A stretch of DNA of 57,926 nt, the filler included, from Porpidia crustulata (taxonomy: Eukaryota), in the NCBI GenBank assembly GCA_964255105.1. It is 8 parts of 8 records of this genome, joined end to end, with 100 filler letters (N's around TTAATTAATTAA, not from the genome) between each part and the next. Parts side by side here need not be neighbours in the genome. Positions count along the whole stretch, not along the records: positions 43,571 to 50,701 come from CAXUWE010001391.1; 7 more parts are not named here. One strand, given 5' to 3'. Below, one piece after another: positions 1 through 50,801 of the stretch; within the stretch, counting starts at the first letter, position 1, and every line of letters starts with the position of its first letter. Under the pieces are notes generated by a model that made no database searches, was not told the DNA's origin, and saw only the letters and a program-made list of their open reading frames with translations. A program made the position numbers and the translations under genes.

Positions 1-3000
1 CATAATGGGCATGCTGATGTCTGGAGAAGAGTCTCTGTTAGTGGGCTTCGGAACAAGGTTGGAAAACGGGGAGAAGAGGGACTTACCCATGAAGATGATG
101 TCGTATCCTGCCTCGTTTTTTTCGGCGGCCTTTACAGCTAATTGTCCATCCTGCGCTGAGTCCACCAATGCATACTTTCTTTTTCTCATGAAAGTTTCAA
201 GGAGTCGAAGATTGATATGGTTATCGTCAACAAGAAGTAGTCTTGGCGGCCGCTTTTGCACGGTATCTGGGGCTACGGGATTACTCGGTGCGACATTTCT
301 CTTCGGTTTTTCTGTAGACGGCGATGTGAGATCTGGTGTGGCTGCTTTGATCTGAACCGTAAGCATCTCTCCAGTCTTCGTAATCGGCGAAGTATAGGGA
401 AATGCTGTTTTATTCACGCATGGTTCTGTCACTCTCTGATCTAGCTTGGGTCGTCTAGAATCCCGCCTAGTGAGATCGATTCGAAGCCGATCAGAAGCAC
501 TCGGTCCGTGTGTCTCATTGTCCACAGAGGGGAAAGGGAAATCACCACGACCTTCTTTGGTCTGATAGTCGCTATGAGCGTCAGCAGAGGAGCTATCGAT
601 AGCCATTTGAGCGTTTGTGGAGTCAGCTGCTGTAACCAAATCACTAACTTGCACCGTGATTGGGGCATCGTCAGTCTGAAGAGTCATCCCTTCAAACTCG
701 GGAACAACAGTTTCAGCTTCTGATTCGGCCGGACTTCCTCCTCTTAGCAAAGCTGTCACTGGAGGTAGTCCAAGCGAAATAGCTTTCGCCTTATCGAGAC
801 ATACACGAATGGCTTTGGCAAGCTTGTAAGGTCCAAAGGGTTTTGAGACGAATTCTACTGCTGCGGTAATGCGAATGTTGGCTTTCTTGAAGCGAGAACT
901 GTTGCTGGATAAGACGATAGTCGGAGTTCCGCTACTCATTTGCTGTGACAAGGCCGCGAGGTTCTTTTCGTCAACGATAATAACATCCGGATTTGCAATA
1001 GCAGGCCGCCACGACAAGGCTTCGAGACCAAACCACTGCTCAATGTAATCCTTGATGACCTGAGCAGTGTTTGTACTCTGAAGGGTTGCTTCTGTCTTGG
1101 CATCGAACCCATACATAGCGACAGTTTTTCCAGGGTATTCCGCTTGTAATGCCCTGATCGAATCGTCATAAAGACGCTCAAGGGAATTACCACTACTCGG
1201 AGTCGACATAGGGGTGTCGGATCCGGGAACTCGCTTTAGGGGTAGACTAATCCTGACTTCCGTCCCTTGGCCCAGTTGACTTCGAATATTGATAGAGCCG
1301 CCTAGCATGCTGACGATACTTCGAACTATAGACAGACCAAGCCCGGTCCCGCTTGCTAGGGTGTCCTCTTGGCAAAAGGGTGTGTATAAGCTTGTCCGTA
1401 GGTACTCGCTGGAGATACCTTTGCCGGTATCAGTAATATTGATCTCTAGTGTCCTCTCATTCTTCTCTTCTACGCCAGCATCACTAGGTAGCTCGTCAAG
1501 TGCCAGCTTGACCACTATCATCCCATTCTGTGTATACTTTAGAGCGTTGCCTAATATGTTCATGATGACTCGTCTCAGCGCTCCAGGCTGTGTAGTGAAT
1601 GTATAGTCCGCACGACTGATATCCAGGACCACCTCGATTTCCTTTGCAGCAAGTTGTTCACCACCAGCTCCAGCCAAGATAGATTGGCCATCACCTCGAT
1701 TGGAGTTTCTCTTTCTCGTATCGCTCGAGGAAGCAGCAAACTCAGCTGAACTAATATCTTGGTAGACCTGTCCTGCATATACCCCCTCAACCACTTCTTC
1801 TGTAATCGCCGCTACATCTGTAACGGCATAGATGTTCATCAAAGGCGGCGCATCCTTCTGCATTATCCGCTTGGAAGATGTCTTATTCGATGTTGAAGAT
1901 GTGGTGCGAACGGCCATCCCTGTCCTGGGTTTGCGAACATTGCGCCAATTCCGTTCAAAAGTATTAATCTTGCTAAAGTCTAGAATGTGATTGATCGTGT
2001 CTAGGAGAGTTCTGGAGCAAGAGTTGACGGTGGATACGAGACTACTCTGGAAATTGTCAATGTCTGTCTCCCCAAGAAACTCTGCACTGGCAAGAATGCC
2101 ATGTAGTGGAGATCTTAGCTCGTGCGAGATGGATCCGATAAAATCTCCCTTCTGGCGATCGGCGGATATACTCGCAAGCCTCGAGACTTCGGCCATCACG
2201 CTATTACCAAAAGCAATTAGGAAGTTGAGCTCAGCCTCTTCGCTAAAAACTTGACGGGGTGAGGTCCCCCAAACGAAGCAGCCACTGAACCATCTAGCCG
2301 AGCTAGCATCCCACAGTGGCGCGAAGAGTAACTGGCGTACTTGAGGAAAGTGTTTTCGTAGCAAGTCTGCTTCGATGCGCCTTCTTCTAGAGCGAGTGAT
2401 CTTACCCTCTGAAAGCTTTCGGATTCCCCTGGGAGAAGCATCGTCTTCCTCCGATGATGAGAGGCGGCCGTCTCCATCAAAACTCCACAGTTTGCCTCGA
2501 GGATAACGCTGAAGGAAGCTCTGTAGAAGGTTTTCCTTTAATGGAACAAATGAGTCTACTCCAGGTTGCTTCGCAGTGGAACTCAGAGCTCCCTCGGATG
2601 TAGAAAAGCTGATTGTATCTGCAGCCTTCTGATGACCTTGTTCCTTGAGAGCACCCCCAAAGCTACTGCGTTGGTAACCCTTTTGGGTCGATGCAGAGTA
2701 AAGCAATGGATCGTTCTTGTCAGTGTCTTGGTTACTCTGGTTGTCATCGGACGTCGTAGAATACTCGGAGGATCTGTCCTCGCGCCCACGGAAGCCAATA
2801 GCAGTGTCAAAGAAAACAACACCACCTCGGCCTCGAAGATCCAAAGATTCCCTGAGAAGGTTTGCTGCGCGCACAAAAGTTGAGCGGTGGCCACGGTCAG
2901 CACTGCCATGAGTTGCGAGATACTCCGCTTCGTCCTGAGAGCCATCTTGACCTTCGGAAGGGGTAGTATTACTGGAATCTTCCGCCATTATTGGAATATG

Positions 3001-3953
3001 GCTCGGGGAAAATGTGGCTTCTTGATTTTCAGAGCTTTGCGATTTCCAAGAGCCTCTGGCGCGTTTCTTCAGATTGCGCCGGGAATTGAGTACTGAGGTA
3101 TCGAAAGTATGATCTTCTAGATCGAAGCGACCCTTGCCTTCCACAAACGCATTCAATCCTCGAGACATTCTCATTGCCCTTCTGCGTTCTTCTGCCTCAC
3201 TATTTATCTCGAGGTGCCCCATGACTATTTTAGCAATGGTCCCGAGAAATGTTTCTTGATTGGAAGTCAGGCGGGGCCTCGGTTTGACATCAATTATGAA
3301 TAAACTACCAATATTCACACCTCTCTTGGTAGTCAGGGGTGTACCAGCATAGAACCTAAAGAACGGCGGGCCTGTAACAAAAGGTAATTGGTCGAAGCGA
3401 TCATCTTTGCTAAGGTCTGTGACTGTAAAACATTGGTACTCCCCAGGACTGTGCGGCAGCTCGATGGTTTTCTATGAAGTTCTGAGTCAATGTTGCAATT
3501 ACTGCTACTTCTCCAAGTTCTTACCTCACAGAGCCTTCCAGACTTATTGACGGTCGAGCAGCCAATCCATAAGTTATCGCCTTCCTCGTCGCATTGCTGG
3601 TCATCAGCGAGATTCAAAGTCTTCGTAGATTCAGCTATGAAGTATTGATGTTCTTTGTCGATCACACTGATTTACTATTAATACTGGTTCATATGTTGAT
3701 AGCAAGATCCTTACCTAATCATTGCTCTCTGTGCATCAAGGCGAAGGGCGCATAGCTGAGCCAGCGCGGTCAAGATCGTGTCAGGCGAGGATGCAGCATT
3801 GGCGCTCAGCGTGTTTTGAGCAAAGTTGGAAAGATTTCTTGTCACCACGACTGGCGAGGAAGTAGCTGGGGTATTAGGAGGCTGGAAGTAGCGGTACAGT
3901 TCATGTTCTCGAGTATTGTCAACCTTCGTGAAAGCATTTTGCGCGATTGTCAT
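1..3953 (-). CDS. Hybrid two-component histidine kinase (GAF-HisKA-HATPase-REC), 3' truncated at contig edge; exons approx. 3953-3715, 3666-3525, 3471-87, 20-<1
   Basis: Manual translation: N-term REHELYRYF..LTALAQLCALRLDAQRAMIS, GAF RFYAGTPLTTKRGVNIGSLFIID, H-box DFIGSISHELRSPLHGI, N-box RRVIMNILGNALKYT, G1 ITDTGKGI, G2 GTGLGLSIV, receiver RLLLVDDNHINL..YDIIFMDISMPIM; three GT-AG introns. The main exon is absent from the ORF track because it runs off the edge without a stop. Confidence 0.93.
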
Positions 3954-7182: not shown

Positions 7183-7282
7183 NNNNNNNNNNNNNNNNNN
7201 NNNNNNNNNNNNNNNNNNNNNNNNNNTTAATTAATTAANNNNNNNNNNNNNNNNNNNNNNNNNNNNNNNNNNNNNNNNNNNN
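7183..7282. other. Artificial contig spacer (N44-TTAATTAATTAA-N44)
   Basis: 100-bp linker with stops in all six frames. Confidence 0.99.
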
Positions 7283-14460: not shown

Positions 14461-14560
14461 NNNNNNNNNNNNNNNNNNNNNNNNNNNNNNNNNNNNNNNN
14501 NNNNTTAATTAATTAANNNNNNNNNNNNNNNNNNNNNNNNNNNNNNNNNNNNNNNNNNNN
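14461..14560. other. Artificial contig spacer
   Basis: N44-TTAATTAATTAA-N44. Confidence 0.99.
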
Positions 14561-21731: not shown

Positions 21732-21831
21732 NNNNNNNNNNNNNNNNNNNNNNNNNNNNNNNNNNNNNNNNNNNNTTAATTAATTAANNNNNNNNNNNNN
21801 NNNNNNNNNNNNNNNNNNNNNNNNNNNNNNN
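21732..21831. other. Artificial contig spacer
   Basis: N44-TTAATTAATTAA-N44. Confidence 0.99.
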
Positions 21832-23985: not shown

Positions 23986-25303
23986 CTATAACTTACTCTT
24001 CCCAACCCCCCAAATCTCCGCTCCAGGGTTATTCATATTCTCGCCTACCGTACCCGTCGATGGCTCCGCTGACGATCTGGACTCTTTGCCTATGATCAGC
24101 GAACTCGCTTTATTAAGTGACTCTTCCGCTTCACGCTCGATTCGCTTGACCAGTTCGTCACATGAAGGTATATCATGAATCAGTCCAATGACCTGGCCTG
24201 CTGTCCATACCTTTGATACAAGAATGAATTAGTTATTGAAGAGCATTGAGGGTACAGCAAGCGGAACTTAGGACTCGGAACTCACTCCATGATCTACGTC
24301 TCCGTTGATGAAGACTTCGCGACCTCGCTTGCCGCTGACGTATGGCGCAACATCCTCAAATTTCCCACTCGTACTTTCTTTCTCCACCTTTACTGCTTCT
24401 TTTGCAATCTTGTTTGCGAATAATCTTGACGTATTCTTCCACCTCCTGAGCACAAGCTCTGTGTCAGTTTCTTGTGCATCTACAATCGCCTGCTTCACTT
24501 TCAAATGTATGGGCGCCTCTACTGTGCACATGAATCTCGTTCCCATGTTGATGCCCTCGGCGCCTAAGCTTAATGCTGCAGCAAGTCCTTGACCATCTGC
24601 AAAACCGCCCGAAGCGATGAATGGTACGTCTAGTGATTGCCGGGCTCTGCTGAGGAGAATAAAATTTGTGATATCTGACTCTCCAACGTGGCCAGCACAC
24701 TCAAAGCCATCAATTGAGAGGAAGTCAACACCAAGTTTGATGGCGGACTGAGCGTGACGGATTGTAGTGCATTTATGCAGTACCGTGCAGCTAGCGGCTT
24801 TAAATTGCTTTATGACGGGTCCCGGACTATTGCCGGCAGTCTCCACAATCCTGATACCCTCGTCGATTATGACCTTCGCATAGCCGTGGTAGTCAGGTGG
24901 GACAAGGGCGGGGAGGAGCGTGAGATTCACCCCAAAGGGGTTCTTGGTCATCGTTCGACATCTTCGGATTTCTTTGCGAAGGTCTTCTGGCGTAGGTTGC
25001 GTAAGAGCAGTGAGCTGGAGTGAAGCGTTAGTCCCAAGTCTCGAGATCTAGATTCTTGAAATCTATACTATCCCCAGTCCCCCAGCATTGCTGACTGCAC
25101 TAGCAAGCTCTGCATATCCAACCCTAATGGATTATATTAGTGCCACTGGTCACGAGGATAACAATGCATTGAATAGAGTATACCATTGCATTCCTCCTTG
25201 GACTACGGGGACTATGGCTCTGTTAGCAAGACCAGTTCACCTGAAGGTGGGGGATCGTACTTTTGATGCCGAGTTGCCTCGTGAGGGCTGTACTGAAAGG
25301 CAT
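23986..25303 (-). CDS. Nitronate monooxygenase / 2-nitropropane dioxygenase (FMN TIM barrel), C-terminal SKL
   Basis: [77 protein letters not shown]; ends GKSKL*; 4 introns. Confidence 0.93.
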
Positions 25304-29001: not shown

Positions 29002-29101
29002 NNNNNNNNNNNNNNNNNNNNNNNNNNNNNNNNNNNNNNNNNNNNTTAATTAATTAANNNNNNNNNNNNNNNNNNNNNNNNNNNNNNNNNNNNNNNNNNN
29101 N
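29002..29101. other. Artificial contig spacer
   Basis: N44-TTAATTAATTAA-N44. Confidence 0.99.
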
Positions 29102-31419: not shown

Positions 31420-31838
31420 AGCTCACAGGCAGTGTCCCGAAAGGAAATGACCAGTTCACAGGAAATTTTATGGACAGAAGTAGAAAATTCGAACAGAAAG
31501 CTGTGGAATTTGAAGAGGTGAAGATCTAGATTGAGATGCACAACACGAAACAGCTCATATTAGACATTCAATACATTTCAAGTTTCAGAGAATCATCCGA
31601 GATGTCCAATCGACAAGCCTCGTTTCGATTTATTGATAAAGAAGAAGATATCAAGAGTGTTGAAGAACAGAAATATGTTGAACGCGACGAAGCCCGTTGA
31701 AGCCCCTCAATGAGGCTTAGCGGCCAATCGAGCTAGGTAATTTTTGACCATCGGGAGACCTTTCGAGCGCTAGATCAAGGTACCCATAAGTACCTTATCA
31801 TATCATTGTGTCGATACTGGGGCAGCCCATATATCACA

Positions 31839-33597
31839 ATGCTGTCGAGTCCTATGTCGACAACAGCAATGTCTCGTAAGGAATCCATCATCACTCGGTG
31901 TCAGGTTGAAAGAATGATTGCCAATGGTGCAACAATCATAATTGTGAACAACAAGGTTCTCAAGGTCGATGCTTGGCTCAAGTACCATCCGGGAGGTGGT
32001 AAACCAATAATGCATATGGTCGGCCGGGATGCTACGGACGAAGTCAATGCGTCCGTTGTTCTATACTGCAGTACCTGCCTATGCTAACGATAGCAGACTA
32101 CACTCCCAAGAAGCACGAGAGCGCATGTTCAGATACCAAATCGGGACCATTGACGGAGTGTGGACTAACTTTCTACCGCCAATCCAAGGTGGAAATTTTC
32201 GGACACAAACCGACCAGATCGAAACAAGTATAGACGACGACGGAGCGGAGGCCTCCTCGAGTGGTGATAGCACCCCACTGGGATCCCCAATGTTTGAGGT
32301 CGCTGAGCGGTCAATCAATCTCAGGAGACGGAGAAGCAAGAGTGTGGCAGACCTCCATGAAGTCTCGTCCCTCTCGTCAATGTCGTCTATGGAGTCACTT
32401 GAACTGCCTCCATTGAAAGAGGTCTCTCGCCTGGATGCCTACACACAGAGAGAGATTGACCTTGATCTCGCGAAATATCCAGCCTTGGACCACGCCACTC
32501 AAAATAACATTGTACAACGGTACCGTGCACTGAACGATCAAATAAGGGCAGAAGGACTCTACAAATGCAATTATACCTCTTATCTCATTGAGACAGTTCG
32601 GTATCTTTTGTTGTTTGGTATGTTTCTTCTGTGCCTGCGCTATGGTTGGTATGGTACAAGTGGCCTTTTCTTAGGTTTCCTCTGGCACCAACTGGTGTTC
32701 ACCGCCCATGATGCAGGACATATGGGAATAACTCACAGCTTCACAATTGATTCTATAATAGGAATTGTGATAGCGGACTTTATGGGAGGCCTGAGTCTAG
32801 GCTGGTGGAAGCGAAACCACAATGTACACCACGTTGTTACAAACCGTCCAGAGCATGACCCGGATATTGAGCACATGCCGTTCTTTGCCATATCACATCG
32901 ATTCTTTGACTCTCTTCAAAGCACCTACTACGAACGAATCATGAAGTATGACCCCTTTGCAAGGTTCGCCATTAAATATCAACAATACTTGTACTATCCT
33001 ATTCTTACCCTTGGTCGCTTCAATTTGTACCGTTTGAGCTGGGAGTATCTGTTATTAGGACTTGGACCTAAGAAGGGCCCGGCATGGTGGCACCGATGGT
33101 TAGAGCTCGCTGGCCACGTATTTTTCTGGACATGGTTCGGATACGGTGTTGTCTACAGGTCCATTCCTACCACTAGCGGCCGAGTCCTTTTCATAATGAT
33201 AAGTCACATGATCACGGCTCCCCTTCATGTCCAGATCACTCTGAGCCACTTTGCTATGAGCACGGCGGACCTCGGAGTCCATGAATCATTCCCGCAAAAG
33301 ATGCTGAGAACGACCATGGATGTTGAATGCCCCGAGTGGCTCGACTTTTTCCACGGAGGTCTGCAATTCCAAGCTGTGCACCACTTATACCCTCGTATTC
33401 CACGACACAATCTTCGCCGCACGCAGAAGCTAGTCCAAGACTTTTGTCAGGACGCAGAGATACCATTCACTCTGTATGGCTTTGTGGACAGCAATAAGGA
33501 AGTTATTGGACGATTGGCTGAGGTCGGACGCCAAGCAGCTATCTTGGCCCAGTGTCAAAGTTCTCTTACCGAGAAAGAATCAGATTTTCAACACTGA
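31839..33597 (+). CDS. SLD1: Delta-8 sphingolipid desaturase (cytochrome b5 fusion), intron 32051-32096
   Basis: b5 motif HPGG..GRDATDE; His boxes HDAGH, HNVHH, QAVHH; start could be one of three nearby ATGs. Confidence 0.93.
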
Positions 33598-36237: not shown

Positions 36238-36337
36238 NNNNNNNNNNNNNNNNNNNNNNNNNNNNNNNNNNNNNNNNNNNNTTAATTAATTAANNNNNNN
36301 NNNNNNNNNNNNNNNNNNNNNNNNNNNNNNNNNNNNN
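36238..36337. other. Artificial contig spacer
   Basis: N44-TTAATTAATTAA-N44. Confidence 0.99.
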
Positions 36338-37091: not shown

Positions 37092-39659
37092 TCATACATC
37101 TGTCAGAGGCTCCGGCGTGGTCTCTGGATCGGAATGATATGTCTGAAACAGAGCGAAGCCATGGAAAAAATGGCCGAAAGTCGCCATGGTAGGTACATGT
37201 TGTTCTCGTGCCTCACTGGCGAGAGATGTTGCTGGGGGAGAACTAAAAGGAGGCGGATCAGTGATTCCATCAATTTGATGGATGGCCTCTACTTTTACGG
37301 CAGACTCAATGGGTGGTAAAGGGCTGGGGCTGAGACCTCGACTCTCGCTTTTGATCTTGCGGTGTGGGAATGGTGAAGAACGTGGGAGGGGCATTTTGGC
37401 AGTCCTTTTCGTAATGGACACGGTTGGAGGAGAAGTTTTACAGGCACGAGCTCGGCTCTCGCTCCTCGTCAGGGGTGAGGTGATCGGTGAAGAATGTCGT
37501 TTAGAAGACCTACTGGTGCTTATCTCAGCGACTCTGATAGGAGGTGGAGAGTTTCGCGCACGAGCACTGCTTTGACTTCTGGTGGTGGGTCGTGAGAGCA
37601 GTGGACGCCGGCGGGTGCGAAATTTGCGTTCCTTATCGAAAAGTGCATTTGGCAACGAGAGCGGGTCCAGGATCAAAGGGCAGCTCTCAGCTCCGGTAGT
37701 AGGAAGAACGGGTGAAGAGCTTCTTGGGAGAGTAGAATCTGCCGGTCCAACGGTACTCGTGCTCCCAACTTTCAAGGATCGCCTTTCCACCAAACAAGGA
37801 GGAACATGTGGACAATTTTGAAGAGAACTCGAGTGATTTAAACATCGCATTCGACTAGTGGACGTTGCAGATGGTTCCAATGAAAAATGACGCCAGTTGC
37901 AGCAGGCCCATTTACCACAAATCTTGCTTATCTCCCATTTATCCTCGATGTATCATTGTTTGTGCTCTTCTGTTAACATATCTCCGATGAGTAGCGCTAC
38001 TAAACCAAAATTGACCGAAAGGTGATGATGATCGTGCCCGTCTTTCCAATGGAATCTCCAGTGAGTAGCTCCGTGACCATGATCCGCTCGCGATCCTTGT
38101 AGATGTGGGTAAAGCCAACAGCCGTCCAATGGCAAACCTTCTTCGAAAAGGTCGTACATCTCCCTAACATGACTCTTCATGGAAAGTACCAGCTCTGAGC
38201 TTGGGTTGTATATGAAGGCATGCTTGCGGTACTTGATTGAGGCTTGACCTGATTGCGTGTCATAGTCAGAAAGCTCGGTAGAACACCTAGTTGATTCGTC
38301 TGTGTATTCAGATGGGCTATCTGATATGGAAGACTCGCTTTCAGATGATGGTCGTTTTCTCTTTCGCAAACTTTGATTATTGCTGGTGCAAGCCATGCGA
38401 CTCCGTTCAGCAGCAACTTGGTGTAGTTTGTCGATTAAAGATGTGCTCCTTGACGCTTTTAGAGGATAATCTGATGTCTTCGAGCTTTGTGGTTCATTGG
38501 ATTCCGATTTCGGGTAAGACACGTTGGTGATCCTTTGATCATTATTTGATTCCTTAGGTTCGTCAACGGTTAATGTGTCAAAAGCGTTGCTATGTGACCT
38601 TTTCCTTGGAGCATAAAGTAAGGCTGAGGTTTCTTTAGTCAACAGCTTTGCTGTTTGAAGCCCATGATCGCTATCATCTTCAATTACGATAGGAGAATAC
38701 CCGGATTCGGGATTTGTATTGAAGAGTCTCGGAACCCTACCATCGAGGTTGGTCCTACCTAGTGAAGGATTCAGCTTCGGACTACTGAGCTCAGAGTTCA
38801 TTCCATCCAATCGACCCAGTCTCCTTGAGATGCTAAGCCTTGAGTCTGTGCCGACAGGTGGCTCCCGGATCCTCAAAATATGTGGATCGAAGTCTATTTC
38901 ATTGATTGGGCTCGAGGTCCTAGAAATGCTAGGTTCGAAGTCAATCCTATCGATTGGGCTTTGGACCGCCCAGGTGCTAGGCTCGCAGTCCGCTATATTC
39001 TCCAGACTCGACGTTCTTAATTCGCTAGGCTCGATGTGCCTGCTACTAAATGGTCGTGAGACTCTGGAAGTTGTGGGCTCGAAATTAATTTCGTTTAGCA
39101 TACCCCGAGACAAGCGAATCCCTGGGTAAAGGTCTGCCAGTATCATTCCTTGGACTTCCAATGGTGGCGCATCCACCTGAAATTCACCTCTTCTTTCTGC
39201 TTGTGGAAAAACGGGGTCCAAAGATTCATTCCTCTCAGAGATATTTGAAAGCATGTTGGAAGTCTTGCTTCCTCTGCGACTCTGGTCAAACGCGGACTCT
39301 ATGCTACCTTCGTCTGCTTTTTGACAGATCTTTAAGGGTTCCTCTACGACTTCTTTGCGCCCAGTGAACGACGCAATTGTCGGTAGTTCGCTCGTAGGGA
39401 AGTCAGTCTTATGAATCCTATGAACAGAGCTGACTCCACCGCACGATCGCCAAACAGCTCCATTCTTCTGCAGTCTTTTTAATTCTGTCGAAGGAGAGCG
39501 CGCATCTCTGCATCGTTGAAATCTGCTCTTTGTAACGGATTTGACACCACCGTTCGATTGATATACAGCGTCCTCTCCGCATGTAATAGATTCCTCATAA
39601 TTGGAAAATGTGATATCAACAACTTTTCTACAATTTTCTGATGGGTTCGCAGTCGACAT
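37092..39659 (-). pseudogene. Large protein with His-Cys box (His-Me finger, homing-endonuclease zinc-loop-like) domain interrupted by in-frame TGA at 37953-37955
   Basis: The 573-aa and 262-aa ORFs are in the same frame; read-through gives DGCWLYP..LTEEHKQ*YIEDKWEISKICGKWACCNWRHFSLEPSATSTSRMRC..NCPHVPPCL. Confidence 0.65.
38715..39098 (-). repeat. Eight degenerate 16-aa (48-bp) coding repeats
   Basis: LNEINFEPTTSRVSRP/FSSRHIEPSELRTSSL/ENIADCEPSTWAVQSP/IDRIDFEPSISRTSSP/INEIDFDPHILRIREP/PVGTDSRLSISRRLGR/LDGMNSELSSPKLNPS/LGRTNLDGRVPRLFNT. Confidence 0.7.
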
Positions 39660-41577
39660 ATCGGAACCCCTCAAGTTTGGATGTGCTAGAATTTGAGATA
39701 ACTTTGGTTCCTATATAATCCTGAATATACATAGAGTTTTTGCAAGATAGATTTAATAATCGGAGTTCTTCAGCGGCGGTTTTGTCGATAATGGTAACTC
39801 AAGTCTGGCTGGCAACAACTTTGGTGATTAGAGAGAGTTGTTCCATGTTTGGGATACTAGTAGTCGTAGACTGGGTTATTATTTATTCGGAGGGTTGCGC
39901 TGCTTATATATCCTTGAAATGGTGGGGAGATAATATTCAATCATGTACCAGATTCACCGCGGCTCATGGAAGACGTGTTCACTGGAAGACAGACCGAGCT
40001 GCATGCTTCATGAGCCTGTGAAGTACAGAATCCAAGAATAGAAATCGAAGCATCATAGCAAAAACGGGATATCAGGCATAGATAAATGAGAAATAGAGCC
40101 GACTTTGTGAACGAAAGAAAGTCAAACGAAACAGAAATCATGGGCGGCCACTACTTGATTCGAGTCTCTGTTGCTGAAGCTCATATTGCAATACGCTAAG
40201 AGGTAGAGTCGCTGGACTCGTGAAGACAATTGCAATTCACTCCTCCATTGGGAAGCTGAATGAATATATGTGTAGAGAATGGGGTGGGGGGGAGGCGGGG
40301 TAGAGGACACAGTGAATGTGCGAGGGAGATCGGTGATGCTGCTACGTCTCAAGGAAGAACACAGAAATCTCTGTATGTTAACGATTCCTTGCTTGTAGTA
40401 GTAATCATTCTACCAGACGGTTGGTGTATAAAAAGAAAGGCAAGTAAAGGAAGTCACAAGCGAGGAAGCTCGGTTACAGTTTGGTGAGGCATTTACGGGA
40501 GTTGTAGGGCAGATGGTAAGGCTGACATAGCCGCATCCAACGGGATTGCCCTATCGGGTGGGATGTCGATGTGGATGTGGGGGGTGCGACGACGGAATCC
40601 CGGAATTCTGATCAATGGGCGGTAGAGTTGAACAAGAAGGTCAAACCATCTGTTAAGGATTGGCTTGTAGAGGGGACATAACCATTGGTAGTACGGTAAT
40701 ACGGAGAGTATCTGAGGAGTGGTCTTATCCTGGCATTCTATTTTGTTCCATTCGTCCACTTTGTTCTAGTGCAGAGATCATGTGGGAACCCGTGGGCATA
40801 CGAGACAAGAGAGCCCTCGACTTGTCAGATGTGGAGAAGAAGACGGAAATAGCTTTGCTGCTCAAGATCGGCAGGTATCACCCACGAGCTCTCACCGCCA
40901 AAACTGCGCATGTAAATTAAGGGGACGATGGGATTGTAGTCGTCGTGTTATTTCAACATAGAATACTTCCTAAGGTGCTATATCAGTAGCCTCATGCCCG
41001 AGGCTGTTTCGAGGTCTTGCATCGCGCTGGTCCAGAGTGCAGCAAAGCAGGTAGTAAGGTATCTAGAGTGCTAAACACCAGTGACACCTAAAGGCCAGAA
41101 GCCAAGGCCATCGGCGGACTTACCCGCACTTCGCATAAAACCCCACGGCCCTCCCACCAGTTCCTCTTCTTCCACATCTCCACAATCATTGCAGAGATAG
41201 GCACGGCAAGCATCACCATTTTGGTTGTTGTCTTCGCTGCAACGGCCGGCGCCATTTGGTGCAAGGCTCAGCCGCTCTGACAGCCAGCGTCGTTGCCGCT
41301 GCTCCTTTTGTTTTCTCTGAGGCGTTCGGTGGTCAACTTCTGTCTGTTTGGCGGTTCCGCAGCCAAGGCGTTTGTTTTCCCAGCATAATACCCCGATTGA
41401 CGACATGCTGTATTCAAGGTGGCGCTGACACACCTCTTCGTTCGTATCTTTCCTCCGAGACCAAATCTGCCGGTCGCTCTGGCCAAATTCCTTTTTCCGC
41501 GCCCGGTCACACCTTATCTTTGAAAACACACTACTTATCAGACTCAGCGGGCAGCAAGTACCTCCAAACCATCAAAG

Positions 41578-43470: not shown

Positions 43471-43570
43471 NNNNNNNNNNNNNNNNNNNNNNNNNNNNNN
43501 NNNNNNNNNNNNNNTTAATTAATTAANNNNNNNNNNNNNNNNNNNNNNNNNNNNNNNNNNNNNNNNNNNN
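43471..43570. other. Artificial contig spacer
   Basis: N44-TTAATTAATTAA-N44. Confidence 0.99.
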
Positions 43571-45776: not shown

Positions 45777-47453
45777 TTAATGCCATGCCGTTTTGTGTGG
45801 ATGGAAATGTTTGTTCTCGATCTTGTGCTCCGTTGTCGTCTTGATCATCTCTCCAAGATTTTCATCAACGCGAGCAAACATAGCTGTGGGTTCGTTATTA
45901 GTGGAAAACCCAAGTCCATGGCGTGATTGAGAATCACTCACCGTATGCCTCATCTCGAATCCATTTTCTCTCGCAACCGCTAGTATGTGCAGATGCGTTG
46001 TTCACAAAGCGCTTCTGTGCTCCCTCTTGCTTTCCCATCAGTTGCCATAAGGCAGTCGCTTGTGTGAAATCCTTCTCGGTAACCTCGGATGCAAAAGACA
46101 CAGGCACTTCGCCAGCAGAAGTCTGGTCATACTTGCCCACATTCTTCGTGGTCGCTCTTCCTGCTCCCTTCGCAGCTTCTGCATTCGGCCCTCCCTGTTC
46201 AGCCGTCAAGAAATTAAAAGGCTTAATCTTCGAGCCGACGTAGTTCGGGTCTCCCCCTGAATTCTTGGTGAAGTTCATCAATCCGTCTCGTTCAACAGGA
46301 CAGTAGACTTCACTCTTCGCAGCGTTTGTGGGTAGAAATTGGTAGTTGATTCCCAATCGGTATCGAGCCGCATCGGGGTAAGCAAACATTCTCGCTTGCA
46401 GCATTGGATCCGGACTTGGTTCAACGCCTCTGACCATATTGCTAGGGCTGAACGCTGCTTGCTCGATTTCTGCAAACCAATTGTCCGGATTCTCGCAGAG
46501 CGTCATGCGGCCAACCTTACGCAAAGGGTATTGCTTGTGTGGCCAGATTTTAGTCATGTCGAAAATATCGACCGAAGCATCCGCAATCTCCTCGGGACGG
46601 ATTGTCTGAACGCACACATTCCAAGATGGGAAGTTGCCAGACTTGATAGCTTCTTGGAGATCCTGGATATGATGGTCAGGGTTGGTCCCTGCCAGTGTAG
46701 CGCCTTCTGTGTTTGTGAAGTAGTGGTTGCCCTGGTTGGTGAGGATGTGGATGCGGATATAATAGTATGAGCCATCTGCTTTCGAGAACTTGTACGTATT
46801 CCCACTATAAGCATTAATGTGTCTGACCGAGGAAGGTAGACCCCGGTCACCAAACAAGAACATCAAAGCGTGTATGCTTTCTTGACTGTTCACGTGAAAG
46901 TCCCAAAACATGTCTGAATTGGGCCTGTTCGTGGTAGGATCACGCTTATGGCTGCGATTCAGCGAGGGTAACTTGACAGGATCGCGGACGAAAAAAACTG
47001 GCTGCAGACGTGTTAGTGACCCGACCGCAGCAATCTCGGTATTGGCTTCACCTGGTTATTAAAGACCCAGTCCTGGTTACCCTCTGAGGTCTTGAACTTG
47101 ATGGCGAATCCTCGAAAATCTCGCACAGTGTCTGCAGAGCCTTTCTCGGGCCCTGTTGTGGCGATTCGAGCAAGCACATCCGTACGCTTTCCAATGCCGG
47201 TCAAGAAATCAGCATCGGTGATATCAGATATGTCATCTGTGACTTCAAAATAGCCTCTGGCTCCTACTGCTTTGGCGTGTACAGACCTCTCCGGAATTCG
47301 CTCTCTCGAGAAATGTGCCAGGTTCTCAATCAATTGTGTGCTGGTCATAAGCAAGAATCCCCCGCCGCTACCCGTCCGTAGCTGCTCTGAAGTGTCATTT
47401 CTGTGACGAGGTTGGCCCTCGGCCAGAGTGTAGAAGGGGGAGCTTTCTGCCAT
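45777..47453 (-). CDS. Monofunctional small-subunit heme catalase, 3 exons
   Basis: AHFSRERIPERSVHAK (distal His), DTVRDFRGFAIKF, WVFNNQPVFFVRDP (Asn), EQAAFSPSN, LQARMFAYPDAARYRLG (proximal Tyr); ends KTAWH*. Confidence 0.95.
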
Positions 47454-48757
47454 TGCCCTGGGTCTTGGCAGAGCGCGTCACTCGAGTAAGAAGGGATTCA
47501 ACAGCAGATCCCGTACCTAAAATAAACTCGACTACCAATAGGATTGAGTATATTGGTCGTCAACCACACGTAGTAGGTCTTGCCAATGCGTGCTTGATTT
47601 GCTCGGAACTTCTCGTGTACCAGTTCAAGATTGTCATTTGGTTCTATTTACCACTTGAGTTGATGTAAATTTGATACGGATCCACACGGAATTGGCTAGA
47701 CTTGACCTGCTATGGTGGAGATTGTTCCCCATTGTTCCCTGCCTGAGCTGCAGTTCATGGCGAGTGACCGACTGACAGTTCAGCCTGCCCTTGTGCGTCG
47801 CCTGCATGCATCACAGACTTCTAGCGCCAGCATAGCCATCCATCACTGTCACCATCTTCGACGTGGATAGCATTGTGCAAAGATGTCGATCATCGGAAGA
47901 TGCAATTCTCTGAATCAGCTTGAGGCAGTGTGAACTGTGCATCAAGTTGGTGGGCATGGTTGAATTAGTCACAAACATGGTGCATATAGAACAAAAACTC
48001 AATAACTTCACCATTGAACCAGCGCCATTAGGAATCGAACCTAATGTAGCTACAATATAAACCCCAGAACGCATATGGGTCTGGATAAGTTCATTGGGGC
48101 GACTTTGTGCGGGGCTTGCAGCAACAATCCCTCACCAGCCCCCATTAACCGATCAACCAGCTTTGGGCCTCGGGGGATGTCACATACTGGCATATCAAAA
48201 GTCACCAGGTGCGGGGCAATCGTCAACATCTTCCATATGACCCCAACCAAGTCGAGCAACACCATTGACATGCGTAAAGCTTCAGCTCAGACTGCTCTAT
48301 GCATGGATGCCAGGCCTATCACTTCGTATCCAGACTGTGAGCCTTCGTGCGCAATGAAACAAGCGGCTGTTCGTACATCGTGCATACGAAAGGAATCTCA
48401 TGCGTCCCTTCAGAGTCACGATGTTCTTGTGTTCTCACATCGATATCCAGGACGCGCGATTTGATGGTATGAACAAAGATCATGCATCGGTCAGGACTAC
48501 CAGGACACCCCATCCCTGTGATAACGCACGAGCTTAGTCTAGCTTTAACCTCAGAGCTTCGTAATGTCATTTGATGTTTGCCATCTGCTATTGCAAAATA
48601 GGAGTGATCCCCGGCTTGTACTGCTCGGGTCGAACAACGGTATTGATTATTACCTGAACTCAAGTCCCAAGTCCCGAACCTTGGGAGATAAATCTGGTCT
48701 GCAAGCAGCCCTTGAACGAACGCTATTCTCCCTCGTACCCCTTACACAGGAGACAAA

Positions 48758-50517
48758 ATGGTCACTACCACTAGCGTAGTCAACCGTCCTGATGAATGGA
48801 AGATTGAACAAGGCCTCACAGCGGCTAAGCTTCCCTTTCTAGACCAGACGGGACCCGAGACAATTGCCATCGAACCTCAAAAATGGGGGGATTTGATCAA
48901 AGACGAGGAAGCTATCAATGCCATCGGCGACCGGAGCAAGCTCTTCGCCAGGGAACTCGAAGGCTGGAAAGGGTATGTGGTTGTCTACCGCATCAGTTCT
49001 CTTCACAGGCAGAACTTAAGTTCAACTAACATACTGTCAGATATGTGGAATGGGAAAAGTATCCGGAGAAGAAGGCAAAGGCTCACAAGATACTCACTTT
49101 GCAGACTTTCCCTCCGAATCCAGAATTCCAGCTTGGACCAATCCCTGACACGAATCCAGTACTTCCTGGCACTCACTGGAAGATGTGGCATCGCGCCGTT
49201 GGTGGCGAATTAGCCTCTGTTCCTGAGGATTCGTGGGAAACTGTCCTTCTTGAAAAGCATCCAGAGATGTTGCATCTGTTGCAATTTCCCTATAATGGCG
49301 AACCTCCAAAAAGGCTGGTGACTTCGAAAGCCATCACTCCAAATTCGCTTCACTTTGTTCGCAACCACGGCGGCATACCGATTATCGACAAGGACAAATG
49401 GAGCCTCGAGCTCGATGGTCTGGTTGCGAACCCTAAATCGTATAAGCTGGAAGATCTCATGAACGACTCAAAGTTTCCGCGGATTGGGAAGCTTGCTACG
49501 ATGCAATGCTCTGGAACCCGTCGCATAGAGCAGATCTCTCTGTATGCAGGACAAGGAGACGAGGTTCCACAGGCCCCATGGGCCGAAGGAGCCATAGGCA
49601 CCGCAAATTATGTGGGTATCAGCTTGAAGAAAATTATCAAAGACTGCGGTGGTCTCAAGGGCGGGGCCAAACACCTTGAACTCTATGGAGCTGATACCTA
49701 CTTCAAGAACAATGAGGCGATGAACTACGTCGTAAGCGTTCCATGGTCCAAAGTCAAAGCCAACGAGGTCTTACTCGTATGGGAAATGAATGGAGAACCG
49801 CTGCCAAAAATTCATGGATATCCCCTTAGAGTGGTTGTGCTGGGCTACATTGGCGCGAGGAGCACCAAATGGCTTTACCGAATTCGAGCCCTCGAGGACC
49901 CGTCACTTGCCCCAGTGCAGAGCAAAGAGTATCTGTATTTCAACCAGCAGGTCGGCAAACACAACCAATGTCCGACAGATGGCATCCAGATCCAAGAGAT
50001 GCCAGTGAGCTCGGCGATCATGTCTCCATGGACGAAACAAGTTGTCATACACAGCGGCCAGATTCATTGCAAAGGCTGGGCATACTCCGGTGGTGGAAGA
50101 TGGCCGGAACGAGTGGAACTGTCCGCCGACGGCGGATTCAGCTGGTATGCTGTCCCCAACGAGAACCTATCGTCAAAGCACAAGTGGACCTGGCGCAGGT
50201 GGGAAATGGACATTCCGTGCGATGTTGAAGGCTGGGTCGAAATCGTCTGTCGTTGTTGGGACAATTCTCTTAATACACAGCCGTTGAACGTCCGCGCAGC
50301 GTGGAATTGGGGTCTCCACGTGACGAGCTCAGCCCACCGGATCAGCGTCTACAGCATCAACAAGAGTCGAGCCCGCACCAGGCAGCGATTGGAGAAGTTT
50401 CAGCGGTTGGGTGTGCCTTTGGCTCCTCTCACATGTCCGGAAGACTTCCAAACACAGACCTGGGAGGAGTACGAGCAGTTCTGGAAGGAAAATGAACCCC
50501 GAGATGTTGATGATTGA
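48758..50517 (+). CDS. Sulfite-oxidase-family molybdoenzyme (Moco plus dimerisation domains, no cytochrome b5), intron 48973-49040
   Basis: PYNGEPP, FVRNHG, TMQCSGTRR (Mo-ligating Cys), EMNGEPLPKIHGYPLRVVVLGYIGARSTKWL, IQEMPVSSAI, GWAYSGGGR..RVELSADGG; no HPGG motif. Confidence 0.92.
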
Positions 50518-50701: not shown

Positions 50702-50801
50702 NNNNNNNNNNNNNNNNNNNNNNNNNNNNNNNNNNNNNNNNNNNNTTAATTAATTAANNNNNNNNNNNNNNNNNNNNNNNNNNNNNNNNNNNNNNNNNNN
50801 N
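50702..50801. other. Artificial contig spacer
   Basis: N44-TTAATTAATTAA-N44. Confidence 0.99.

Follow-up and report, generated by a model that had tools for sequence, protein, structure and literature searches.

A divergently transcribed sulfite oxidase-family gene and catalase gene of Porpidia crustulata belong to a recurrent gene pair of filamentous ascomycetes

Gene content and organization of the locus

The DNA analyzed here (57,926 nucleotides from Porpidia crustulata, assembly GCA_964255105.1; the whole stretch is referred to as the window) carries, at positions 45777 to 50517, a catalase gene on the minus strand and, head-to-head with it, a plus-strand gene for a heme-less molybdenum cofactor (Moco) enzyme of the sulfite oxidase (SO) family, here called SOX. 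Catalase genes recur beside SOX genes in a range of filamentous ascomycetes, in some loci with a dye-decolorizing-type (DyP) peroxidase in their place, and we consider it very probable that SOX and its neighboring catalase or peroxidase form a functionally linked pair. The DNA is fungal and nuclear, with short introns of the GT..AG type. The gene models were read from the DNA itself, using open reading frames (ORFs), splice sites, and spliced translations, and comprise the following features.

45777..45883, minus strand: catalase exon 3 and stop codon, with the clade-specific C-terminal motif HPHKTAWH at its end
45884..45941, minus strand: catalase intron 2 (58 nt, GT..AG)
45942..47001, minus strand: catalase exon 2, containing the distal Asn and, in MFAYPDAARYRLG, the proximal Tyr; the Catalase-rel region begins in this exon (Pfam Catalase, PF00199, 1.1e-105; Catalase-rel, 7.4e-06, below the gathering score)
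47002..47051, minus strand: catalase intron 1 (50 nt, GT..AG; frame restored)
47052..47453, minus strand: catalase exon 1 (ATG at 47453; 134 codons), with the distal His in ERSVHAKAVGARG (Pfam Catalase, 1.7e-45; alignment to yeast catalase A, 1a4e; splice donor GTGAAG after 47052)
47454..48757, no strand: divergent intergenic region (1304 bp), the presumed shared promoter
48758..48972, plus strand: SOX exon 1, encoding the N-terminal portion of a conserved extension (MVTTTSVVNRPDEWKIEQG); no Pfam family, aligned with the N termini of the orthologues (E13, W14, E17, Q18, and G19 invariant)
48973..49040, plus strand: SOX intron (68 nt, GT..AG; junction EGWKG/YVEWEKYPEKK, the same in all orthologues)
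49041..50517, plus strand: SOX exon 2 and stop codon, encoding the remaining extension, the Moco-binding domain (Oxidored_molyb, PF00174, 3.6e-47), the dimerization domain following it (Mo-co_dimer, PF03404, 9.2e-21), and a C-terminal tail of ~55 amino acids; Cys ligand in QCSGTRR, end PRDVDD

The two start codons face one another over the intergenic region. The spliced catalase (three exons, no internal stops) is 522 amino acids long and ends in HPHKTAWH, and its intron 1 junction (DWVFNNQ/PVFFVRDP) is the same in every homologue. The SOX product (two exons) is 563 amino acids long and ends in PRDVDD. An earlier description of the window, made from its sequence alone (the sequence-only reading), had placed an intact minus-strand catalase and a plus-strand SO-family gene head-to-head across 1.3 kb, and every detail of this that was checked was right. 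It had also seen an oxidase with no cytochrome b5 domain and with an N-terminal extension of about 150 residues. Neither exon gives a Cyt-b5 match in Pfam, and HPGG is absent from the spliced product; the alignment to the Moco domain of chicken SO begins at about residue 144, and the preceding extension is conserved in the orthologues. Likewise, neither protein carries a type 1 peroxisomal targeting signal (PTS1), as had been stated, since the ends -AWH and -VDD are unlike PTS1.

The SOX protein

SOX residues ~1 to 180 match no Pfam domain. Among solved structures, the best match to SOX was chicken SO (1sox; E value, 1e-59), followed by plant SO (1ogp; 4.5e-55), whereas bacterial SorA and yeast nitrate reductase were weaker matches (~1e-32 to 1e-31). 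The nearest named homologue, Letrouitia transgressa P0002, is of equal length (563 amino acids) and 92% identical. Homologues of ~560 to 575 amino acids with 70 to 92% identity were found over five classes (Lecanoromycetes, Eurotiomycetes, Dothideomycetes, Leotiomycetes, and Sordariomycetes), which places this ~565-residue heme-less enzyme among the best-conserved enzymes of filamentous ascomycetes. These orthologues collapse into one representative at 50% clustering, and the next full-length relatives are only ~50% identical. The N-terminal extension (~145 amino acids) and the C-terminal tail are conserved along with the rest of the protein. The orthologues end in PRDV/A-D/E-D/E, which is not PTS1-like.

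Pocket residues are numbered here as in chicken SO. The ligand of the molybdenum is kept: ATMQCSGTRR of the window protein aligns to ATLQCAGNRR of the chicken enzyme (C185), and the corresponding C228 is invariant in 17 orthologues. The counterparts of R138, R190, W204, and Y322 are also kept (FVRNH, SGTRR, APWAEGAI, and SKEYLYF, respectively) and are likewise invariant in the 17 orthologues. The counterpart of R450 (WNLRG) is absent and is replaced by WNWGLHVT, again invariant in the 17 orthologues, suggesting that the substrate or the kinetics may differ. As judged from its sequence, SOX is a member of the SO family that is heme-less like the plant enzyme and is neither typically plant-type nor typically animal-type. 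An AlphaFold2 model of the Letrouitia orthologue, built with a 17-row alignment, was poor (mean pLDDT, 53.8; pTM, 0.36) and was not used.

The orthologues carry various names in their sources: "related to nitrate reductase," "sulfite reductase," and "NADH-cytochrome b5 reductase." Species of Exophiala apparently have two SOX paralogues, e.g., PV10_04447 and PV10_08470 in E. mesophila.

The catalase

The best PDB matches of the window catalase are yeast peroxisomal-type catalases (6rjn, 2xq1, and 1a4e). The distal His, the distal Asn, and the proximal Tyr, the catalytic residues of catalases, are kept (VHAK, FNNQPVFF, and FAYPDAARYR, respectively) in an alignment with 40 other catalases. In trees, the protein falls within a well-supported clade, here designated clade A, which has a long stem (0.49). 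Clade A is marked by the signature GARG in place of the GA[F/W/Y]G of other catalases and by the His-rich C terminus HPHKTAWH (45777 to 45800, minus strand, in the window), which was present in 21 of the 24 clade A sequences and absent from the other clades. Possible roles for this motif are contact with a metal or with heme, targeting, and interaction. The long stem and the C-terminal motif make "divergent," the term used for this catalase in the sequence-only reading, a fair one. The clade is patchy by taxon, with several lichen fungi, Xylariales, Chaetothyriales, and a few Leotiomycetes. A PTS1-like end (-ARL) was seen in only 2 of the 78 catalase rows listed (Aspergillus glaucus and A. wentii).

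Recurrence of the pair in metagenome contigs and named genomes

A scan of metagenome contigs with a SOX profile yielded 78 loci (designated L, with a number) with up to 8 kb of flank per side, which form 66 groups at ≥95% DNA identity. Thirty-four groups were informative, having a flank of 2.5 kb or more on at least one side, and their flanks sum to 368,973 bases. When searched with the window catalase by tblastn, 13 of the 78 loci had a catalase beside SOX. Counted by informative group, the number was 9 of 34, versus 0.05 to 0.16 expected under our assumption of a 30- to 40-Mb genome with 4 to 10 catalase genes. Two further informative groups had a DyP peroxidase, and in L017, whose flank is too short for it to be counted among the 34, a catalase fragment lies downstream of SOX. 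In an all-against-all clustering of the ORFs, catalase was the commonest neighbor (12 loci and the window), followed by a MoaA-type protein (5 loci), and the remaining recurrent ORFs were restricted to sets of closely related contigs.

The arrangement of the two genes varies. They are head-to-head in the window, L005/L036, L015, L027, L045, and L070, tandem in L002 and L061, and convergent in L017 and L018-20, and in L010 two genes separate them. The flanking genes other than the pair differ from lineage to lineage. By the best matches of their oxidases, the loci belong to at least five classes of Pezizomycotina.

Among named genomes, SOX and a catalase were taken as adjacent in 20 species from the numbering of their locus tags or accessions, which is expected to follow the contigs; the numbers are consecutive or, in some species, two apart. 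Consecutive numbers were found in Letrouitia subvulpina, Myriangium duriaei, Aspergillus floccosus, A. ambiguus, Fusarium graminearum (FGSG_02880/02881 and three other strains), F. pseudograminearum, Aureobasidium sp. EXF-12344, Pestalotiopsis fici and two other Pestalotiopsis, Xylariaceae sp. FL0255, Exophiala xenobiotica (four assemblies), Penicillium expansum, P. camemberti, P. samsonianum, P. hordei, and Trichoderma reesei and T. gracile (for the Trichoderma species, catalase and SOX accessions from separate listings were combined). In Aureobasidium melanogenum and A. subglaciale, the two accessions are two apart.

The sequence-only reading had proposed a two-gene unit, and the two genes do behave as one: they recur side by side far more often than expected by chance in five or more classes of Pezizomycotina, in every relative orientation and with catalases that are not orthologous to one another.

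Partner exchange and additional cluster members

In trees made with FastTree and IQ-TREE, the catalases adjacent to SOX fall into three clades, A, B, and C, with Shimodaira-Hasegawa-like approximate likelihood ratio test (SH-aLRT) supports of 100, 100, and 98. Clade A contains the adjacent catalases of the window, Letrouitia, L002, and L018; clade B contains those of Myriangium, Aureobasidium, Fusarium, Trichoderma, Pestalotiopsis, E. xenobiotica, L015, L027, L045, and L070; and clade C contains those of Aspergillus and Penicillium. The second, non-adjacent small-subunit catalase of T. reesei groups with clade C, and that of E. xenobiotica falls outside B, in a separate clade. A tree constrained to hold the 17 adjacent rows together, apart from these two paralogues, was worse by 164 log-likelihood units (P value of the approximately unbiased [AU] test, 3e-6), for a grouping that was named only after the tree had been seen. 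The adjacent catalases are not one orthologous lineage, and the partner has therefore been replaced at least once. Within Exophiala, the adjacent catalase belongs to clade A in L002, a species-like contig, and to clade B in E. xenobiotica.

Exchange also extends to another enzyme family. In L009 (6502-7647, minus strand) and L013 (6155-7249, minus strand), which are Sordariales-like, a DyP-type peroxidase is head-to-head with SOX and there is no catalase, and in L015, also Sordariales-like, a DyP gene (126-1181, minus strand), a catalase gene, and SOX stand in a row. The constant feature beside the oxidase is an H2O2-consuming heme enzyme and not one particular gene. That such a partner is kept though the gene changes is the strongest argument for peroxide production by the oxidase.

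Genes for cofactor synthesis also join the pair. A MoaA-type cyclic pyranopterin monophosphate (cPMP) synthase of the radical S-adenosylmethionine (SAM) type lies beside SOX or the catalase in L002 (5911-7260, minus strand), L010 (4604-5761, minus strand), and L018 (12722-14188, plus strand); these MoaA-bearing loci (L002, L010, and L018-20) represent an Exophiala-like, a Penicillium-like, and a third lineage. Over-long NCBI gene models of Aureobasidium melanogenum join SOX to MoaE (P0411) and the catalase to a Zn2Cys6 regulator, and a dioxygenase of the TauD/TfdA family is joined to SOX in the gene models of two Pseudogymnoascus (P0691 and P0700). These joined models (TauD and SOX, SOX and MoaE, and catalase and transcription factor [TF]) are probably merged neighbors, as probably are the other long NCBI catalase models (catalase with F-box, Iso_dh, or HET). 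TauD enzymes free sulfite from sulfonates, and TauD is the sole neighbor that speaks directly for a sulfite substrate. No fusion of SOX and catalase was shown in the search of 50% representatives, in which the orthologues collapse into one cluster. The window has no Moco-synthesis, regulator, TauD, or DyP gene.

Zn2Cys6 regulators were found near the pair in L002, L018, and L027, and one in L045 was recognized from its likeness to the TF part of P0422. They are orthologous within lineages (L002/L018, 61%; L027/L071, 76%; the TF-containing C-terminal part of P0422 versus L045, 55%). Across classes, the Zn2Cys6 proteins are only ~30% alike, which gives no ground for proposing a common cluster regulator.

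Intergenic region and regulation

Four blocks of the intergenic region (47454-48757) match the corresponding region of the congeneric contig L036 at 73 to 81% identity, and none of the ORFs within the intergenic region has a Pfam family. The promoter had been put forward as a place for motif discovery; when eight divergent intergenic regions were compared, no shared k-mer exceeded the shuffled controls.

Published expression data come chiefly from Fusarium. In Fusarium fujikuroi, FFUJ_11472, described as having a carboxy sulfite oxidase domain and then a catalase domain, ranks second among the light-activated genes (365-fold) and rises 54.8-fold in a carS mutant (PMC6340186). That FFUJ_11472 combines SOX and catalase is known from the published Pfam column, its sole source. 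In F. oxysporum, the catalase gene FOXG_16836 responds 37.3-fold to light and 18.7-fold to the loss of carS, and the separate adjacent SUOX gene FOXG_16837 responds 12.1-fold and 4.3-fold, respectively; in the same data, light also induces a MoeA gene and two further SOX-family genes (PMC6340186). The sulfite oxidase gene bcsox1 of Botrytis cinerea is listed as light-induced in a WCL1-dependent manner (PMC10218500).

On record, the regulation is by light, CarS, and WCL1 and not by sulfite or sulfur. The sequence-only reading had assumed that the two genes are co-regulated: the adjacent catalase and SUOX genes of F. oxysporum are indeed co-induced in published transcriptome sequencing (RNA-seq) data, but the recorded stimulus is light or CarS rather than sulfite. 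Another light-induced gene, Neurospora crassa NCU03112, bears the name "NADH cytochrome b5 reductase" (PMC4169166). The same name is also borne by the SOX orthologues P0113 and P0643, and NCU03112 may be the Neurospora orthologue.

Comparison with known systems

The SO of Arabidopsis (1ogp) is similar to SOX in being heme-less and in having the Moco and dimerization domains. Plant SO uses O2 as the electron acceptor, has H2O2 as its end product, and is entangled with catalase, and sulfite inhibits catalase (PMC10574614); for the fungal SOX, the use of O2 and the release of H2O2 are presumed by analogy. The differences are several. Plant SO has ~393 residues and is peroxisomal, whereas the fungal protein has 563 residues, with the ~145-residue extension, the C-terminal tail, and no PTS1-like end, and it has WNWGLH where the plant enzyme keeps an arginine equivalent to R450 (WNLRG). 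Finally, the link between plant SO and catalase is physiological, through a shared compartment, whereas the fungal link is a conserved gene pair in the genome.

Animal SO (chicken 1sox and human SUOX) has the same Moco and dimerization fold, is the best solved relative, and shares the Cys ligand and the counterparts of R138, R190, W204, and Y322 with SOX. The mitochondrial animal enzyme, however, has an N-terminal cytochrome b5 domain through which electrons pass to cytochrome c, whereas SOX of the window has neither the b5 domain nor R450.

Close parallels are FFUJ_11472, FOXG_16836/FOXG_16837, and FGSG_02880/02881 of Fusarium, in which SOX stands beside a catalase under the control of light and CarS (PMC6340186). 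The Fusarium catalases belong to clade B, like those of L015 and L045, whereas the window catalase belongs to clade A. The F. graminearum gene FGSG_02881 is used as "Catalase 2" (PMC3861502 and PMC8536143), and passages of the Fusarium articles describe, among stress genes, simply a catalase or a large protein of two domains, with no discussion of a SOX-catalase unit (PMC6340186, PMC3861502, and PMC8536143).

EasC of the ergot alkaloid cluster, whose structure (9jdb) was among the PDB matches, offers a further likeness, as it is a small-subunit catalase homologue that selection has kept beside its partner enzymes. EasC is a biosynthetic enzyme of a secondary-metabolite cluster, whereas the partner in the window is a Moco oxidase of primary metabolism and the catalase has ordinary catalytic residues.

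Proposed function of the pair and alternative explanations

We regard it as somewhat probable that the pair is a conserved, co-regulated module of filamentous ascomycetes in which an oxidase acting on sulfite and O2 releases H2O2 and a neighboring enzyme scavenges it. In this module, SOX would most likely oxidize sulfite to sulfate. Its electrons would pass to O2, as in plant SO, giving superoxide or H2O2; O2 is proposed as the acceptor because SOX has no cytochrome domain. The divergently transcribed catalase would remove the H2O2 on the spot. The reaction would probably take place in the cytosol, outside peroxisomes, because both proteins lack a PTS1-like end. In some lineages, genes for cofactor supply and a regulator may have been recruited, and expression may be partly driven by light. 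More tentatively, Pezizomycotina may have a light-inducible cluster of a Moco oxidase and a peroxide scavenger that has been rebuilt repeatedly with non-orthologous heme partners; perhaps such a cluster has heme-less SOX and catalase as its core and MoaA/MoaE, a Zn2Cys6 regulator, DyP, and TauD as optional members.

Several observations weigh against this interpretation. Neither a catalase nor a DyP peroxidase was found in the available flank of 23 of the 34 informative groups, and among the groups with 8 kb on both sides, a catalase was present in only 3 of 13 and DyP in 1 of 13. In the named genomes, where adjacency was read from numbering, both genes are on separate contigs in Hypoxylon trugodes and Exophiala viscosa and, for the catalases listed, appear unlinked in Pseudogymnoascus sp. 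24MN13, A. luchuensis, and Meristemomyces frigidus. The AU test carries the post hoc grouping mentioned above. On the side of the enzymes, the R450 counterpart is absent from SOX, and the window catalase, whose activity is assumed, has RIATT, with Ala replacing the Ser of R-x-S-T-V, a residue of functional weight in catalases. RIATT is common to the window, L036, Letrouitia subvulpina, and Trypethelium subeluteriae, and the other rows shown have RISTV or a similar sequence. A search of open-access full text and bioRxiv found no paper that characterizes this fungal SOX family biochemically. As to regulation, the 6-, 7-, and 8-mers common to the eight divergent intergenic regions were not above 200 shuffles, the Fusarium and Botrytis genes were taken as orthologues from their annotation and the FGSG_02880/02881 adjacency rather than from sequence, and co-regulation of the pair in P. 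crustulata itself would be an extension of the Fusarium data only.

Three other explanations were weighed. The first keeps the module and changes the substrate: the Moco enzyme would reduce nitrite, nitrate, or an N- or S-oxide or would oxidize another small anion as part of a response to light or oxidative stress, and the neighboring catalase or peroxidase would handle the reactive oxygen species formed. The family-wide replacement of the R450 counterpart by the invariant WNWGLHVT is in its favor, as are the extension and the tail without a known domain, the tightness of the family as a single cluster set apart from its next full-length relatives, the regulation by light, CarS, and WCL1 instead of sulfur, and the inconsistent names of the orthologues. 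Nevertheless, of the five pocket residues that characterize sulfite oxidases, four are retained, among them Y322, at the position of which nitrate reductases have Asn; the closest relatives of known structure are bona fide sulfite oxidases (E value, 1e-59, versus 1e-31 for nitrate reductase); and TauD, of a sulfite-releasing family, is joined to SOX in the Pseudogymnoascus models. We consider another substrate unlikely.

A lower probability still is given to the second explanation, that the heme enzyme performs a second catalytic step in which H2O2 from the oxidase is used peroxidatically on a second substrate molecule; this could involve a complex, with the SOX extension docking on the catalase. 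The replacement of catalase by a DyP peroxidase would fit such a step, as would the oddities of clade A (GARG, HPHKTAWH, and, in the subgroup of the window, Ala for Ser) and the conserved yet unexplained SOX extension, and in the plant model the peroxide oxidizes a second sulfite non-enzymatically (PMC10574614). Yet catalases of three clades without common special features act as partners, the catalases retain the usual catalytic residues (His, Asn, and Tyr), no sign of binding was found, none having been looked for, and the extension is equally conserved where no catalase adjoins SOX.

The third explanation, adjacency without function, as an old synteny surviving by chance in some lineages, could draw on the roughly two-thirds of informative loci without the pair, the unlinked genes in some genomes, and the failure to find a common promoter motif, but it is already disfavored and very improbable, given that 9 occurrences were observed versus ~0.1 expected, orientation changes while adjacency is kept and the surrounding genes are not common to the lineages, the partners are non-orthologous with DyP substituting for catalase in some loci, Moco genes cluster with the pair, and the separate adjacent genes of F. 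oxysporum are co-induced.

Implications

If the proposed oxidase and scavenger module is real, it would be the first evidence that the fungal SO family is an O2-dependent, H2O2-producing oxidase outside peroxisomes. It would place the clearance of sulfite, or of a related oxyanion, within the fungal response to light and exposure to air, and it would be relevant to lichen fungi, which live beside an O2-evolving photobiont. The fungus behind the window is probably a lichen former akin to Letrouitia. A role in lichen SO2 tolerance, as suggested from the sequence alone, was not borne out: the pair is equally present in molds, black yeasts, and plant pathogens and is widespread in Pezizomycotina. 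It is a candidate for sulfite handling in lichen biology, and a lichen-specific adaptation is unsupported.

The coupling of oxidases to catalase and the interplay of plant SO with catalase were known already (PMC10574614). In agreement with the sequence-only reading, which knew of no description of the pairing as a system, a search of open-access full text and bioRxiv found no account of a conserved, repeatedly rebuilt fungal cluster of SOX with a catalase or peroxidase.

The repeated pairing turns the electron acceptor and the product of SOX into a testable prediction, and the links to Moco synthesis, a sulfonate dioxygenase, and light indicate the conditions in which to look. The pair also accounts for odd "two-domain" gene models, and catalases treated as stand-alone stress genes, such as "Catalase 2" (FGSG_02881) of F. 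graminearum, have a dedicated partner.

Other features of the window

Other genes in the window encode a TFIIA large subunit, CDC20, a Kelch-BTB protein, and a phosphoglucomutase. A hybrid histidine kinase gene (1-3471, minus strand) runs off the start of the window, a fragment of a nitronate monooxygenase gene lies at 24271-25047 (minus strand), and a fusion of cytochrome b5 and fatty acid desaturase is encoded at 31737-33594 (plus strand). Two long ORFs of 286 and 585 amino acids at 37095-39710 (minus strand), whose sole Pfam match is a weak homing-endonuclease zinc-loop below the gathering score, may be a remnant of a mobile element.

The window also contains seven pairs of 44-base N runs, ~7.27 kb apart (7183-7282, 14461-14560, 21732-21831, 29002-29101, 36238-36337, 43471-43570, and 50702-50801). 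They resemble masking more than assembly gaps, and one of the pairs follows shortly after the SOX stop codon.

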